Of a stretch of DNA of 64,000 nt, positions 1-7,310 are shown in pieces (position 1 is the stretch's first letter; each line of letters opens with the position of its first letter). Location of the stretch: NCBI RefSeq assembly GCF_044704955.1, contig NC_091980.1, forward strand, positions 130,510,001 through 130,574,000, in the 5' to 3' direction. Source of the DNA: Pristiophorus japonicus (lineage: Eukaryota). Below the pieces are notes generated by a model. The model did not search any database. It worked only from the letters and a program-made list of their open reading frames with translations, and was not told where the DNA came from. The position numbers were made by a program, and so were the translations under genes.

Positions 1-1879
1 CCCATGTTAATTCTAAGATCAATTGTATCCCGACCAGTATATGACATTATTCGAATCCAAGGATGGATGTTCACATTTATTCCCCACTCCCAGACCTTTC
101 TCCACCAACTCTGACTTTGTAAGTCTACTTCGATATCATCTTTCAGTACTTTGATTTTAGTTTGCAGTTAGTGGTAGAGCTTTACGGATTGACCCACCCT
201 GAGCCTCAATTCTCGTAATACTTCGGTTAGATGTGGGATCGGGACCTGCTCTGGCTCGTCATAATCCTGCAAATGATCGTGGAGCTGATCGGTTACATCA
301 ATAACTTCAGGCTTCCGGTGCCTAACCTGGGTGATATGCGCTTGCCCGATTGTGACAGGTTGTAGCGGCGCAAAGCAAATGTTCGGCTGTGGTATCGGGC
401 ACTGCAGGTCATTATACCGGTATGAACGCTCTGTGGTAGAGACGCAGTATCTTCCCTTCCCTCTGTAGCCTACCCTCGCGAAGTGCCTGTGTGCGGGCAC
501 TATTTCTAGTACACACCCATCGGTTCGGTTAAACCCGTACTCGTCTAGCTCACCTCGGCCGACCGGGTGAGGGCATACTGCGATCTCCCCCTTTGCTTGC
601 ATTCTGTTAGGGAGATCCCGGTTTCTCCTCATCTCAGTCCCAAATGGCCGACCCCTTACCCTGAGACTGTGACTCCTGGTTCTAGACTCCCCAGTCCGGA
701 GGGGAAACAGCCTCCCAGTATCTAAGCTGAATTATGTATGTCGCATGTCGTTTCGACGAACGGCGGATGTGCTGGTCAGATAGTAACGTATGGAGACATT
801 TTTCCGTATTACTCCGATATTCTCTAGTTGGTACAGGGGGAACGGCCCTGAGTCCGGCGTGGCGATAGGGATCATCAGAACTATCCCTATCCCAGTATTG
901 CTACCCATCTGGCAATCTGGAATTGCTGGGTGTACTCTGGTCAGTCCCTTCAGAGTACAATTATCCTTTGTCCCCATCTGCTTAGTCAACTGAGCTAAAT
1001 GTGAACTGTCTATCCAATCGGGTACTTCCCCGCGTTGGATCTGGTTGAGATTGTGGCGGATCTGTCCCACCATCCACAGACCATAAGCGTGACAGAGTTG
1101 CCCCAGTCTTTGCTTTCCTGTATCTTCTTTTTCTCTATCAATGAGGTGATTGATGGTTTTGGCGTGAGCTTCCAGGACTCAGATGCCATCCAACTGGATT
1201 TTGGCACCCTCCTTTCCTAGGTTGTACATTGTACATTTTCCTTGACTCTTCTGTATAGTATTCTGGCATCTGTATGCCTGAAATATTGATCAGGACAGGC
1301 ACAATTTCATGTTTAACATTATCATACAATAATTCCCCTTTGTTGTACATTACAATCCCATTTTCTGATCCCTTAGTAGTTATGGGACAAGGCAGTTCCT
1401 CGGGCAATGTAATGGTTCTTATGGGGCGCAGTGTCGGAGTGGCTGAGAAGCATACATACAATGATATTGCAGCTGACTCCACCTCCTCGTAGTACCCACA
1501 CAGCCCCACTCTCTTTTTGCAGATGCCTGATTGCTGGGACTGTCCCGGAGGTGTGCAAATTATGCCGAAAGTACATTCATCGGGCCCTTTGATATCCCTC
1601 CGTTTAATGCAGCTGCTCCTTATACCCGTGGAGCACTGTACACATACCCGGTTCTTATTAGGATTCACTTGTAACCATGCATTAAAATAAGTCCTGTCCT
1701 TGCTCCAGTCCTTGGCTGCTGGGATGCACATTCCATCCGTTAAATTAAACGACTCCATAGTTCATGTAGTTTATTTCCTGAGTGCGCTGCAATCTGTTGG
1801 TATCATCCAGTGTTTGCGTGGGTCTTGAGGTTCCCAGTATCACGAGTCCCCAGAGTCGAAGTCACCACTGTGGTCCCAT
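1..1879 (-). pseudogene. Decayed envelope / class I fusion (F-like) glycoprotein gene
   Basis: ATG at 1879 follows a TTTTCAG acceptor and a signal-peptide-like LRLWGLVILG. Then a Cys-rich ORF 1758-1138, a heptad region, VLMIPIATPDSGPFPLYQLENIG, GISLTECKQRG/EIAVCPHP, GFNRTDGCVLEIV, GRYCVST, an HR2-like helix, Trp-rich SQSWWRKVWEWG and TM-like ILVGIQLILELTW at the window edge. Several stops and frameshifts. Confidence 0.75.
622..724 (-). mobile_element. Tail-less internal CR1 LINE fragment interrupting env
   Basis: Reverse complement encodes the CR1 ORF2 C-terminal motif (ESRTRSHSLRVRGRPFGTEMRRN), also seen at 25430-25500. Confidence 0.7.
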
Positions 1880-2001
1880 CTTGAGTGTTTTATCTGAAAA
1901 TTTTAAACCGGTAGCATGGTTGTCACCAGGTGTTAGGTTCTGGTCTACTTGTGTCATTGTCACTCTGGAATCGGAGGTAAGGATTAGGTTAACCATATTC
2001 T

Positions 2002-2154
2002 TTATAGTCGTACCATCTCTATCACTTCATGTCCCTGTCTGGGCTGCTGTCGGTTTTGCGTATGAGCCTGCTGTGCTCGAGCCTGCGCGATGACCCATCT
2101 AAATATTATCCAAACTCCAATCAACACCAATGCTACCATTATTCCTCCAAACAT
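2002..2154 (-). CDS. Putative 50-aa single-pass membrane accessory peptide (MFGGIMVALVLIGVWIIFRWVIAQARAQQAHTQNRQQPRQGHEVIEMVRL)
   Basis: Hand-translated intact small ORF below the ORF-track cutoff. About 20-aa hydrophobic segment then a polar tail, just upstream of env. Confidence 0.35.
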   Translation of the reverse strand: MFGGIMVALVLIGVWIIFRWVIAQARAQQAHTQNRQQPRQGHEVIEMVRL

Positions 2155-4912
2155 CGCTGTCTGCTTTACCGTTGGGTTGGGTTTGTGGACTACACCTACC
2201 CACCGTGGGGTACATTGGCTCTATTGCCATAGGTGATGGTGCTATGGCTGTGCACTGCACTATCCATCTAGTCCTGTTTTTAAAACATCTCTTCCAGCCT
2301 GTTTATCTTAGCTTTTAACTCTTGACCAGCTAGTTCTGTTTTATTTTAATTCTGAATATTCCACCATTTCCTCTGTCAGGTGAGTCTTCTTTATTTTATT
2401 AAGAAATCCAAATTAATAATGTCCAGTATAAAACAGCTGTCAATGGAAAGGGTTAACTGCTTTACAGGTTTGTAAGAAAGCCTGATGTCATTACGTGACT
2501 TCATGTAATCATCCGAAAAAATTTTTTTTTCAAGTCTTTGTGCCTTAAACTTGCTTAGAAATTAGGAATCTGTTAAACAGCATAAATCATTAGTAACGTG
2601 GTCATCATAAAAAATCTTCTCATTGGGAAAGACAGCATTTTAGATTAAACTCCAATTTTTTCTTAACTTCTAATTCAAGTACTTGCCAAATAATTTTTTT
2701 TAAATTGATTTAAGACGAGACCACACATTTTTAATAGCTATTTTGTTTACTGAAATTCATTTTTTTATTTTTTTTATTTCTCTCAGCACAAAATGTAAAC
2801 ATCTGTGCCAGTTCCATTTTCTAAGAATTTAAAATTTCAGTAAGATTCTCTAATTCCCAGTTTTTTTCTTTCTGTGCTGAGTTCGCATAGCTTGGGTCTT
2901 TTCTCCTCGTTCTCTTCAAAACCCTCCTGCTTGTTTAGACTGTTCGGGACTTTTCTTGATAAACACTGTCCATTTTGGAAATCTTTTCAAAGTGCATTGA
3001 AACTTTCTCATAATTTAAAATCTTTATCGATGTAGAGTGTCTTTTACCTCTTCCAGTTTTTTCTTTTTCTAATTAAACCATTATCTTTTTCACAGCAAAC
3101 ATCAACCAGCATTTAGTAAGTTTAGTCTTTTTCCATCACAAACATTTTTTTTTTCAGCACTTATTTAGCACGTTACATCTTTTTTTTTCAGATCTCCTTT
3201 CTTCAAATTTAGGTTTTGTATTCTACACGGAGGGCTCGTGACTCCACAAATTTGTTAATTTAAAATCATTTGTTTACTTTCAAAGTGTCGTCTTTATCTT
3301 TTTCTTTGCTCCATGACTAGAATGGAGTCCAGCAATTAGGTTTCGAGGGCTGCTTTTTGTGATCTCAAAATGCTCCAATTTCAAAGTCGTTAAAATGTCT
3401 CTTCTAAACTGCTAAAGCTTGCTGTTTTCAACATTTTTCAAAAGTCCCTTTTACACCTTCGCAGATAGTTCGCCACTCGCCCAGGAGTTTGACCTGATCC
3501 CTGAAGGTATTTCTATATTGTTTCCAAACCTTTTAATTTTATATCTCATTTTTTCCTTTAAGAGATCAGATTTAATACAATTTTTTTTTTTTTAATCCAC
3601 CTCAGTATTTTGCTGTGCCTTCTCTGAATATCTCAAAATCCTAATGTAAATCTTTATTTAAAACCTTTTTTGAGCTAGAATTTTTTTTTTAAAAGGCATT
3701 CTTTATCTCCTTCCTAGACTAAATTTATGTCTTTCAACCCAATGTAATCAATCATTGCATGTTTTCTTTTGACAAGTAAGTGAGCGTGTCAAATAAATTC
3801 TTTTTTTTAAACCACCGGGACCATGTATTTTTTATCTTTTGCTCAACAAACCTATCCTTTGTACATTTCCTAGCTCTGTAACTTATCATCCAAATAAATC
3901 CACACCTGTGTTTCTAACTTAAAATGTCTTAAAACTTCCCACATACAGGATAACACTACAAAGGGTTTAAAAAAAACTTTCACTCTGTTTAGAAAAGTGG
4001 GTGGAGCTAAAATAAACAGACACTTGCATTCCTCTTCCAACCAGGCTTTTGGAAACATGAAAACATAAAAAAATTCATTCGGCAGTCAAGAAATCACAAG
4101 GACGCAACAACATACATTCACAAGTCTCTCCATTCAACAAGCTTAATTTTTTTTTTTGGCCAGCTCTATTCTTGGATCCATACTTCACTTAAGATTAATA
4201 AAAAAAAAAAAAAAAAACCTGATAGTGATTATTTCTTACATGTTGATTTACTTCCTGTTTGTTTTACGTGGGCTCGCAGTATCAAAACTACAGCCTTTTC
4301 ATTTTTGTCTTTCTTTTCCTTCTCCCACCATTCCGCTGGTCTGCTGGCAGGTCCTGAGGATCCCACCCTACTCGAATCATTTTCTCGATTTTGTTTTTCC
4401 GCCAGGTGGTGGGTAAGGGACCCTTCTGGTCCCCACTCGGTTATTTGTTTTATTGGCCATACCTGGGTAGGACTAGAACCATTAGGAATCTACTCTCGGA
4501 GGTCCGCTTTCTACCTAGCGTAACTTGTAGTAGACCGTCTCCTGGCTACTCTCAGGTCACAAGTTCTGCTGTTGCACAAACTTATTCAATTCTTAAAACG
4601 CGTTTAAGCAATTCCCGCAGTGCTCTACGTATCCTTAACGACTACCTACCACCGCTCTGCCCGTTGGTCAGACCCTGTTCACAGGTTTGGATTCCGTTAG
4701 CTGCTGTACACCGCTTGGTTCTACTCCGGGGTATATTTCAAATTACACTAATGGGTCTGGAAGATGTCTTTCAGTATCATGATCCCACGGTCCAAGTGTG
4801 TTCCCGGCACCTACTTAGTTCCTGGCTGCCACGTGGGACTAAAGTCCTCTTAATTCAGGCTCAGGCTAGGTGTTTGAGATATTGGACTGTCTCCTCATGT
4901 TTATCTTCCAGC

Positions 4913-4929
4913 ATCCACCTTCCGCACCA
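4913..4929 (-). promoter_or_regulatory. Primer-binding site TGGTGCGGAAGGTGGAT (tRNA identity uncertain, loosely Leu-like)
   Basis: TGG (complement of tRNA CCA) lies directly after the LTR end; partial resemblance to the tRNA-Leu PBS TGGTGTCAGAAGTGGGAT. Confidence 0.55.
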
Positions 4930-5560
4930 GTTATAAAATTTTGTTTAAGGTATACACACCCGGTTTCTCCAAGAGCGCCACTGTTAGCGTGAATGTGTTC
5001 TCCCAAGAATCACAACACTGAGTCGGTTCCAACGCCAATGTGGCCTTTATTTTGCATGTTGGGAGGAAGCCTCACGACTGGATCCAGGCATTTCTCTCCG
5101 ACGAATAAAGAAACTCATCGATATTTATATGTTTTACAATAGTGCTTTACAGTTAGCCCACTTTGGCTGGTCACAATCCAATCATAACGATTATAGATTA
5201 CATATAGGTTTCTTTAACCCAATAGAATTCCCCATATACCTCAGGGGCTGTATGTTTGGTTTTGTCAGCTCGGGCTGATTAATGACCTCGTTATGTGAGG
5301 CAGGATCTCTCCTTATCTCTGTTCCTCGTGGCTCGGCTGTGTGAAGTCACTGATTATACCAGTGTACTATAATGGTTTGTTATAATTATCTTGTTTCCAA
5401 GGCATTCCTGGTAGTGGGCCTCACTAGGTCATTGCTCGGTCAGCCCCAGTTCATTACTTGACTAATTGAGTACCCATCATGCCTGGGCAGCCATTTTATG
5501 TGTGGCCACTTTAACCATATGAGTTTGGATATATTCAGCAGGTCCCTAATGCCTACAACA
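4930..5560 (-). repeat. 5' LTR (~630 bp) of the ERV-like element
   Basis: Minus strand starts TGTTGTA and ends TATAAC (imperfect terminal inverted repeat). TATAAA near 5124-5129 precedes AATAAA at 5046-5051, the expected U3-R-U5 order. The PBS follows immediately. Confidence 0.75.
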
Positions 5561-5954
5561 CAGTAAAACTCAGCTAGCTTTTCTCTTTTTTTATATATAC
5601 AATATGAATTCTGCACTGTGACTCGATCTCTAGTTTAGGAAGTTGCTTTGACTGCCAATACTGCCTCTCAATTAGCCTATACAAAATGTATTTGGGTTAA
5701 TAAAGTAGTATTATTAGAGCATGCTACTGGTGACCAGGGTATAAATTTTGTGGCAACTCCTTCACTAATTTCCAGAGCCAAAATGAATATAGGGTGCCAA
5801 GATTAAGATTCCAGTTTTAAGCATGTTCAATCAAAGCTGAATTGGTGATTATGGAGTGATGCAGCACAGGAGGCCATTCAGCCCATTGTGCCTTGCTGAA
5901 TGTTGGGTGGAGCGAAACAACTGTTTCCATAGCCTGCAAATTTTTCTAAATCAC

Positions 5955-7310
5955 GCAAGAGGATGAGACTGGGGAATTAGTAATGGGCAACATAGAGATG
6001 GCAGAAAATCTGAACAAATATCTTGTATCTGTTTTGACAGTAGAGGACAGGAACAACATTCCAATGGTGGATAGTCAAGGGGCTATAGAGGGGAGGTACT
6101 TAATGCAGTAACAATCACCTGATGAGGTAGGACTCACTAAGATAATTGGGCTAAAGGCAGATAAATGGTCCTGAAGGCTTGCATCCTAGGGTCTTGAGAA
6201 GTAGCGGCAGGGATTGTGGATGCATTGGTTGTAATTTACCACAATTCCCTGGATTCTGGGGAGGTCCCAGCAGATTGGAAAGATGCAAATGTAATGCCCC
6301 TATTTTTTTTATTTTGAAAAGTCGGAAACTATAGACCAGTTTGCCTAATATCTGATTGGAAAAATGTTGGCGTCCATTATTAACATAGCAGCAGGGACAT
6401 TTGGAAAAGCAAAATTTGATCAGGTAGAGTCTGCATGGATTTATGAAGGGGAAGTCGTGTTTGATATATTTGCTGGCATTCTTTGAGGATGTAACGAACG
6501 GGTTGATGGTGAACCAGTGGCTGTGGTGTATTTGGACTTCCAGAATGCATTTGACAAGGTGCCACAAAATTACTGCACAAGATGAAAGTTCACAGGCTTT
6601 GGGGGTAATATACTAGCATGGATAGAGGATTGGCTAAAGAACAGAGTCGGGAAAAATGGTTCATTCTTTGGTTGGCAACCAGTATCTAGTAGAGTGCTGC
6701 AGGGATCAGTGCTGGGACCACAACTATTTACAATCTATATATATATATTACACTCTGTCCCTCCATCCAAGTCTGTAACGTAGCCTAGTTTGTTCCTCCC
6801 AACTTTGTCAGTAATGTGTGAGAACACACATCTGCAAAAGGACATAGGCAGGCTAAGTGAGTGGGCAAAAATTTGACTGTTGGAAAGTGAGGTCATGCAC
6901 TTTAGCAGAAAAAAAAATCAGAGCAAATTTTTATTTTAAATGAAGCAAGATTGCAAAGTGCCACAGTACAGCGGAGTGGAGTGGAGTTATTGAAATGTAT
7001 AAGATTGAGGGGGCTTGACTGCGTGGATACAGAGAGGATGTTCCCGCTGATGGGGGAGACTACAACTAGAGGCATGATCTTAGAATAAGGGGCTGCCCAT
7101 ATAGAACTGAGAAAGTTCTTAAGGGTTGTCAATCTGTGGAATTTGCTGAGCTGTGGAAAGCTGAGACATTGAATAAATTTAAGACTGTAATACAGTTTCT
7201 TAAATGCTAAGGGATTATGAGGGGATAAGTCCATGATCAGATCATCCATAATATTAAATGGTGGAACAGGCTCTGAGCTGTGTGATCTACTCCTGTTCAT
7301 ATTTCTCATA
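5955..7310 (+). mobile_element. Degraded CR1 LINE (RT to 3' end) in A-gene intron 1; paralogs ~32815-34205 and ~56975-58380
   Basis: GFMKGKSCL, YLDFQ.AFDKVP and QGSVLGP motifs, plus a CR1 3' region. Confidence 0.85.

Follow-up and report, generated by a model that had tools for sequence, protein, structure and literature searches.

The window, a 64,000-nt stretch of the Pristiophorus japonicus genome, begins with a pseudogene of a retroviral envelope gene (env) on the minus strand, which is part of a 6.4-kb LTR element with TG...CA LTRs when the neighboring sequence on the left is included (Table 1). The original prediction had described positions 1-1879 as an LTR element; the element is real, although no LTR falls within 1-1879 itself. 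The env motifs that it named all lie on the minus strand in the order it gave, spread over three reading frames. They are not a product of chance, because the stretch is matched by 40 scored copies, the best of them at 95-98%, and near-full natural frames exist elsewhere. These copies came from a DNA search of the species' own genome (5.9 Gb), in which 40 of 2831 first-look candidates were scored.

Table 1. Features of the env pseudogene and of the LTR element that carries it (window positions unless stated otherwise)
Feature	Position	Strand	Remarks
env pseudogene, predicted F-type (class Ib) fusion glycoprotein	1..1879	-	runs on ~130 nt left of window
env ATG	1879	-
TGA at env codon 6	1862..1864	-	common to 38/40 pol-less copies
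Junction of 239-240-nt deletion	1224..1225	-	seen at window locus and its two segmental duplicates
LCHAYG	1080-1097	-
VLMIPI	864-881	-
PFPLYQL	825-845	-
122-nt inserted interspersed repeat fragment	623..744	.	33 matches in fetched loci
ISLTEC	599-616	-
AVCPHP	564-581	-
GFNRTDGC	513-536	-
GRYCVST	435-455	-
SWWRKVWEW	84-110	-
Half of small accessory membrane ORF with its TM and tail (terminal E-M-x-x-L)	2002..2154	-	remnant in window
A-rich filler where pol and most of gag would be	2170..4250	-	common to pol-less family
Remnant of first ~70 gag codons	4256..4438	-	tblastn 59% identity, E 1e-8
Leader region	4439..4975	-	~80% identical to autonomous family
Truncated primer-binding site	4976..4981	-	intact sisters carry TGGCGTCACGAACAGGAT
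5' LTR (TG...CA)	4982..5560	-	91.6% identical to 3' LTR, K2P 0.068
5-bp target-site duplication TACTG	5561..5565	-	second copy beyond 3' LTR
3' LTR	G000:C4:130509165-130509741		left of window

The feature is thus real, yet it is a dead env pseudogene without key fusion elements. Relative to natural unbroken frames, the 239-240-nt deletion takes away the furin site, the fusion peptide and the N-terminal half of HR1, and dispersed env copies align in two pieces around this gap. The inserted fragment resembles what we take to be a shark SINE/CR1 tail, and small indels and a frameshifted transmembrane segment (TM) add to the damage. Of the parts predicted at the outset, the signal peptide is present but broken by the stop at codon 6, and the series leading from heptad helix to TM is correct in its motif order, while in this copy the HR1 half is missing and the TM is out of frame. 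The window env is 85-91% identical in nucleotides to the env of an autonomous family, compared with ~95% to a pol-less sister.

Upstream of env, the A-rich filler contains poly-A runs and, when compared with the fetched loci, matched no other family except one short flanking repeat; an Rfam scan of window positions 1-6000 likewise gave no match. Frames within the filler had been considered as integrase or smc candidates and were dropped, no pol match being found inside any element. Weak pol matches (25-33%) in four loci are of gypsy level and lie outside the LTRs in the three that were checked. The leader is likely to hold the packaging signal, and the primer-binding site (PBS) of intact sisters, TGGCGTCACGAACAGGAT, is complementary to a tRNA-Ser(CGA) gene of the same genome. 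Depending on which of the two rates applied in the accessible text of PMC4422223 is chosen, the distance between the two LTRs corresponds to ~15 or 154 million years, so the age of the window copy is poorly fixed. Positions 5800-64000 of the window contain large segmental duplications in tandem, spaced 20-27 kb apart, and a 33-nt minisatellite. Two further copies of the element's locus, with the same target-site duplication, lie on C4 at distances of ~160 kb and ~105 kb.

Autonomous relatives and a small membrane ORF

Intact relatives with pol, a search for which had been suggested with the original prediction, are present in the same genome. A Chiloscyllium protein that bears an integrase C-terminus ahead of env gave 150 scored matches, many of which sit in open frames of ~1180 aa. 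Eight of ten loci fetched for these pol ends belong to an autonomous family of ~9.4 kb with LTRs that are 99.1-100% identical (L056, L059, L060, L062, L065, L066, L069 and L071, at least two of which share flanks); the other two are an older sister and an env-less derivative. In six of the eight copies gag, pol and env are all open and gag and pol are in frame, and in all eight a single in-frame UGA separates gag from pol, from which readthrough at this codon may be inferred. Gag carries CCHC knuckles, pol is ordered PR-RT-tether-RH-IN with a dual RNase H, an MLV-type IN C-terminal match (E 0.003) falls below the cut-off, and env is 87-88% identical to protein P0001. The autonomous sisters therefore combine the features of Retroviridae (LTRs, tRNA PBS, gag, PR-RT-tether-RH-IN and env), of which the window copy lacks pol. 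As young elements, they provide natural full-length Env sequences and suggest recent activity of a retrovirus of the SnRV grade in sharks.

Other related elements were encountered. The env-less derivative (L080, L052-L055; C3, 316-319 Mb) has retained the small TM ORF described below and, of pol, the RH-IN part, and occurs as several near-identical, clustered copies. Older sister families (L077, L079, L041-L049) have env genes that are 41-75% identical. A more distant retroviral element, split by a gypsy insertion (L078:1-9740), differs in RH/tether type, and its env is 30% identical to the shark env family; the similar proteins P0019 and P0040 bear an Ig-like N-terminal label.

In the sister families, an ORF of 66-79 aa lies between pol and env (e.g. 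L076:6417-6614); it has one TM and ends in E-M-x-x-L, and the half that includes the TM survives in the window. Of 15 pairs compared, nine had a dN/dS of 0.14-0.41 and one close pair had 1.0, while the five others were saturated and gave no defined value. Searches of Pfam and Atlas with this ORF gave no match. Its position recalls, in our view, that of Vpu, and its conservation makes it a candidate new accessory protein.

The pol-less family and the fate of its env

The 40 scored copies comprise the window copy, its two segmental duplicates and 37 others; as the top matches to the window env, they are a biased sample. None has a pol of its own, 35 retain the first 50-85 gag codons, and all 40 contain most of the A-rich filler. 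Where LTR pairs were cleanly found, they are 91-98% identical. Most PBSs match the tRNA-Ser(CGA) gene, while a subgroup carries TGGCGTAGTCGGCAG. The env tree of these copies is star-like. The family also looks mosaic, with a small ORF and env start that resemble the L047/L079 type and an env body of the young autonomous type.

Selection on env was estimated from 33 of the 40 copies; the other seven were partial or misaligned, or else duplicated the window locus. Differences between the pol-less and autonomous families gave an omega of 0.21, private (singleton) non-CpG changes gave ~0.78 with stops accumulating, and shared variants gave 0.5-0.55 (p 0.025 and 0.075), a hint that selection may have acted to some extent while the family spread. 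Env was thus constrained in the replicating virus and most likely became a passenger in the pol-less family; that it was already a passenger there follows from the codon-6 stop that its copies have in common.

If instead the pol-less family had kept a working env, it might have supplied envelope in trans to env-less relatives and spread by reinfection. An env of nearly full length in elements devoid of gag and pol, the occurrence of env-less derivatives in the same genome and the omega of ~0.5 among shared variants would all fit such a history, and the early stop might be bypassed by a spliced leader or by UGA-C readthrough. However, 38 of the 40 copies have that stop, stops at later positions are found in 3-5 pol-less copies each, and the shared-variant signal fades (64:41 vs 314:147, p 0.17) once letters equal to those of the autonomous family are removed, so that we regard working env in this family as unlikely.

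Trans mobilization is known for non-autonomous LTR elements generally, and on this basis the passenger-bearing family would have spread in a burst with Gag-Pol borrowed from an autonomous helper, the kept LTRs, PBS, leader and polypurine tract probably serving as the cis-acting parts. The window copy would then have decayed more and been duplicated twice together with its flanks.

Predicted fold of the shark envelope protein

Natural frames of the family contain a furin site, fusion peptide, HR1, central helix, beta core, HR2 and TM, as judged from the frames themselves, a structural model and fold searches. Folding of a 724-aa natural frame with 37 sequences gave a model (pLDDT 62.5, pTM 0.44) in which the core is confident and the head poorly modeled. 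In Foldseek, the fold check proposed at the outset, all listed PDB matches were paramyxo- or pneumovirus F proteins, led by RSV F (E 1.8e-9) and hPIV3 F (E 4.6e-9), with TM-scores of only ~0.3. In VIA, hMPV F and RSV F both matched at Z 11.6, with an rmsd of 5.7 across 280 residues for hMPV F; foamy virus Env 8rm0 matched at Z 8.3 (rmsd 5.8 across 261 residues), and unrelated rows reached at most 5.7. The top ESM Atlas clusters carry PF00523 at 0.92-0.93, with a low recognition score. Based on these model matches, which favor the class I F-type fold originally proposed, we predict that the Env of the shark family belongs to the F-type (class Ib) fusion proteins. Paramyxo- and pneumovirus F proteins are its best solved-structure matches in model comparisons, yet they are only 9-16% identical in sequence and lack the extra N-terminal head that precedes the F2-like strand of the shark protein.

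Pfam returned no F (PF00523) or TLV_coat match for the env fragments or the full natural frames, and phmmer of P0001 against PDB found nothing useful. A motif scan of the natural frames detected neither CX6CC nor LQNRxxLD, in agreement with the absence of a CX6CC or immunosuppressive motif noted before; the gamma-type control P0103 itself lacks CX6CC, which makes P0103 a weak negative control. Env homologs at 49-83% identity come from sharks only, which makes the proposed cartilaginous-fish host likely, and weaker ones come from sharks, a skate and frogs. The frog proteins P0025, P0029 and P0043 (Pelodytes, Mantella with 16 cluster members, and Xenopus) are 23-25% identical, and the env family thereby extends to amphibians.

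The same scaffold was detectable in the envelopes of other retroviruses. Against WDSV Env, the shark env profile reached an HH probability of 97% (score 92, E 1.2e-10) with a colinear core over 420 columns; three foamy virus Envs gave 63-92% (scores 47-62) and SnRV Env 80% (score 53, 291 columns). In controls, shuffled sequences (15 for each of three targets) scored at most 27, reversed ones at most 26, and four unrelated proteins below 20. A BFVD search placed WEHV1 Env second and WDSV Env eighth (E 6.7e-14 and 7.7e-11). SnRV Env was weak by hmmsearch (E 0.015); a model of its core matched F proteins (E 3.3e-6) and in VIA had its best match in foamy Env (Z 7.8, rmsd 7.4, 273 aligned), but the underlying alignment consists mostly of shark-family sequences, so this result is not independent. 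Env identities below 20% across groups are too low for an env tree. Because foamy Env is F-like (PMC11468914, accessible text) and WDSV/WEHV Env score as F-like here, matches to epsilon- or spumavirus envelopes, which the original prediction had counted against an F fold, are no argument against it. Nor is an F-type Env a hallmark of lokiretroviruses, given that the scaffold can also be detected in the envelopes of WDSV, foamy viruses and SnRV.

In the intact virus, Env would be made with a signal peptide and cleaved by furin at R-x-K-R, after which the trimeric protein would expose its fusion peptide, and HR1 and HR2 would refold into a six-helix bundle around the paramyxo-like beta core. The Cys-rich N-terminal head is the likely receptor-binding module.

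Placement among retroviruses and the origin of the envelope

The RT phylogeny called for in the original prediction contained 43 rows, namely 31 of 120 listed homologs, 2 shark sequences, 8 references and 2 gypsy sequences as the root. The references were SnRV (L082, 10,688 nt, in agreement with the length given in the accessible text of PMC12193657), WDSV (L083), 5 of 17 foamy virus records, and L101, a single partial loki-type RT labeled by motifs in the accessible part of the supplement of PMC7947760; ERV-L, HERV-S and CmiERV RTs are absent from the tree and its foamy rows are of mammalian type only. The shark rows formed a clade (99/98) inside Retroviridae (96/94), sister to teleost elements (95/88) and outside both the foamy clade (100/100) and the class I gamma/epsilon clade (100/98) that contains WDSV, while L101 branched outside and SnRV fell in a basal polytomy. 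A clade of shark and loki-type RTs was rejected (p-AU 0.0016). Union of the 13-row shark/teleost clade with SnRV, a grouping named after the tree was seen, was not rejected (p-AU 0.15). A search of viral contigs with the shark RT gave no loci.

Several characters point to SnRV and its relatives. The shark family shares with the SnRV-like elements or clade Huo, as described in the accessible text of PMC4422223 and PMC8922424, an in-frame gag-stop-pol arrangement, a CCHC Gag with a near-identical NC motif (the zinc-knuckle region is 54% identical to SnRV over 41 aa), the RT motifs RLTIDY, LDIxNGFWSI and WTRLPQGFHxSP, a CAAWA motif in the tether, a group-III-type RNase H, and an RT outside class I. 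One autonomous copy has the same tRNA-Ser PBS as CmiERV lineage I, which clusters with SnRV, and SnRV-clustering ERVs have already been reported in the elephant shark (PMC4422223, accessible text). The likeness has limits. The shark RT is only 42% identical to that of SnRV (41.6%, compared with 39.2% to MLV), and the shark IN scores higher against WDSV and foamy viruses than against SnRV. The shark family is smaller (~9.4 kb with an Env of 715 aa, compared with 10.7 kb and ~1100 aa for SnRV), has UGA at the gag-pol junction instead of the UAG found in the SnRV and WDSV records, and has just one small TM ORF in the pol-env interval. From these sequence characters, the family may provisionally be filed in the SnRV-like/clade Huo grade, beside the teleost elements.

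That the element might be a cartilaginous-fish lokiretrovirus, or a sister lineage beyond the sampled retroviruses, as first suggested, is a reading that rested on real resemblances: by the description in the accessible text of PMC7947760, lokiretroviruses have an LTR-gag-pol-env layout, dual RNase H, and an F-like Env that includes a signal peptide, an RxKR site, a fusion peptide, a coiled coil and a TM. Membership in that group would further call for an RT that is sister to those of all other retroviruses and for an integrase akin to CGIN1. However, the shark RT lies within Retroviridae and outside the loki branch, which is represented by one partial sequence, and reads LPQGFHNSP instead of the loki motif CPFGYxNSPA, one exact loki RT pattern having no match in the same genome (G000). 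The shark RNase H is of the gamma/epsilon/SnRV type (41-45% identical to SnRV, WDSV and MLV and 24-27% to foamy viruses in pairwise comparison), whereas loki RNase H groups with that of foamy viruses (Wang and Han, PMC7947760, accessible text), and the listed autonomous copies have no smc ORF. In the accessible part of the same authors' screen, six chondrichthyan genomes are unmarked, by our understanding of the mark, and among the unmarked species is Chiloscyllium punctatum, which carries the shark env family. The lokiretrovirus reading is thus largely refuted, and we hold it to be very improbable.

An equally poor prospect is an endogenous foamy-like virus of cartilaginous fish. Foamy Env, a class Ib fusogen according to the accessible text of PMC11468914, shares the predicted F-type core with the shark protein and is the best solved-structure match of the env sequence profile (E 0.063), in addition to its HH probabilities given above. 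Yet the mammalian-type foamy RTs of our tree form a separate long clade, and the shark gag and pol are of orthoretrovirus type, with CCHC in Gag, gag and pol in frame across one stop, and an RNase H and tether unlike those of foamy viruses; foamy Gag has no CCHC, and foamy pol is expressed separately. The envelopes differ as well, a shark Env of ~715 aa with an N-terminal signal peptide and a small Cys-rich head contrasting with a foamy Env of 990 aa with a leader peptide and a large inserted RBD.

F-type env genes are common among invertebrate Ty3/gypsy elements (PMC13524379, accessible text), which might make the locus an env-carrying, errantivirus-like element of that group or, alternatively, a domesticated host gene. 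The dual RNase H and the retroviral RT placement argue against Ty3/gypsy, while dispersed, LTR-bounded copies with target-site duplications and near-neutral decay argue against a host gene; linkage of env to pol in eight autonomous loci speaks against an assembly artifact. We regard this last pair of origins as exceedingly improbable. By contrast, we consider it highly probable that the env in the window is a decayed gene from a gag/pol-deleted LTR element, and that this element goes back to a retrovirus of the SnRV grade, likely from a shark, with a predicted F-type Env.

Since the intact relatives of the window element cluster with ordinary fish retroviruses, not with lokiretroviruses, the F-type envelope is likely to be more widespread among retroviruses than the searched papers describe. 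As far as their accessible text goes, Wang and Han (PMC7947760) found no overall similarity of loki Env to other retroviral Env proteins and left four origin scenarios open, PMC9967133 calls WDSV/WEHV Env 'distinct', non-gamma and thought to be recent, and bioRxiv 2021.11.23.469661 deals with gamma-type Env only. In the passages covered by our literature search, no statement was found that the Env of an SnRV-grade shark ERV or of WDSV is F-type. The epsilonretroviruses WDSV and WEHV share the colinear core of the shark Env, although the WDSV RT belongs to a separate clade and its Env of ~1220 aa has a long N-terminal extension.

We tentatively suggest that an F-type Env may have been the ancestral envelope of Retroviridae, which loki, foamy, SnRV, WDSV/WEHV and the shark clade retained and which gamma- and beta-type envelopes later replaced elsewhere; the shark version would be a compact one, whose very young proviruses seem intact and also encode a small, Vpu-like membrane protein that has not been described before. 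If true, this would favor those scenarios of Wang and Han in which the common ancestor had F, and it would put a name to the unexplained envelope of WDSV. As a bridge profile, the shark env family connects the envelopes of WDSV, foamy viruses and SnRV, and it extends the predicted F-type Env into fish Orthoretrovirinae. The window locus is dead, but the family to which it belongs bears on the origin of retroviral Env.
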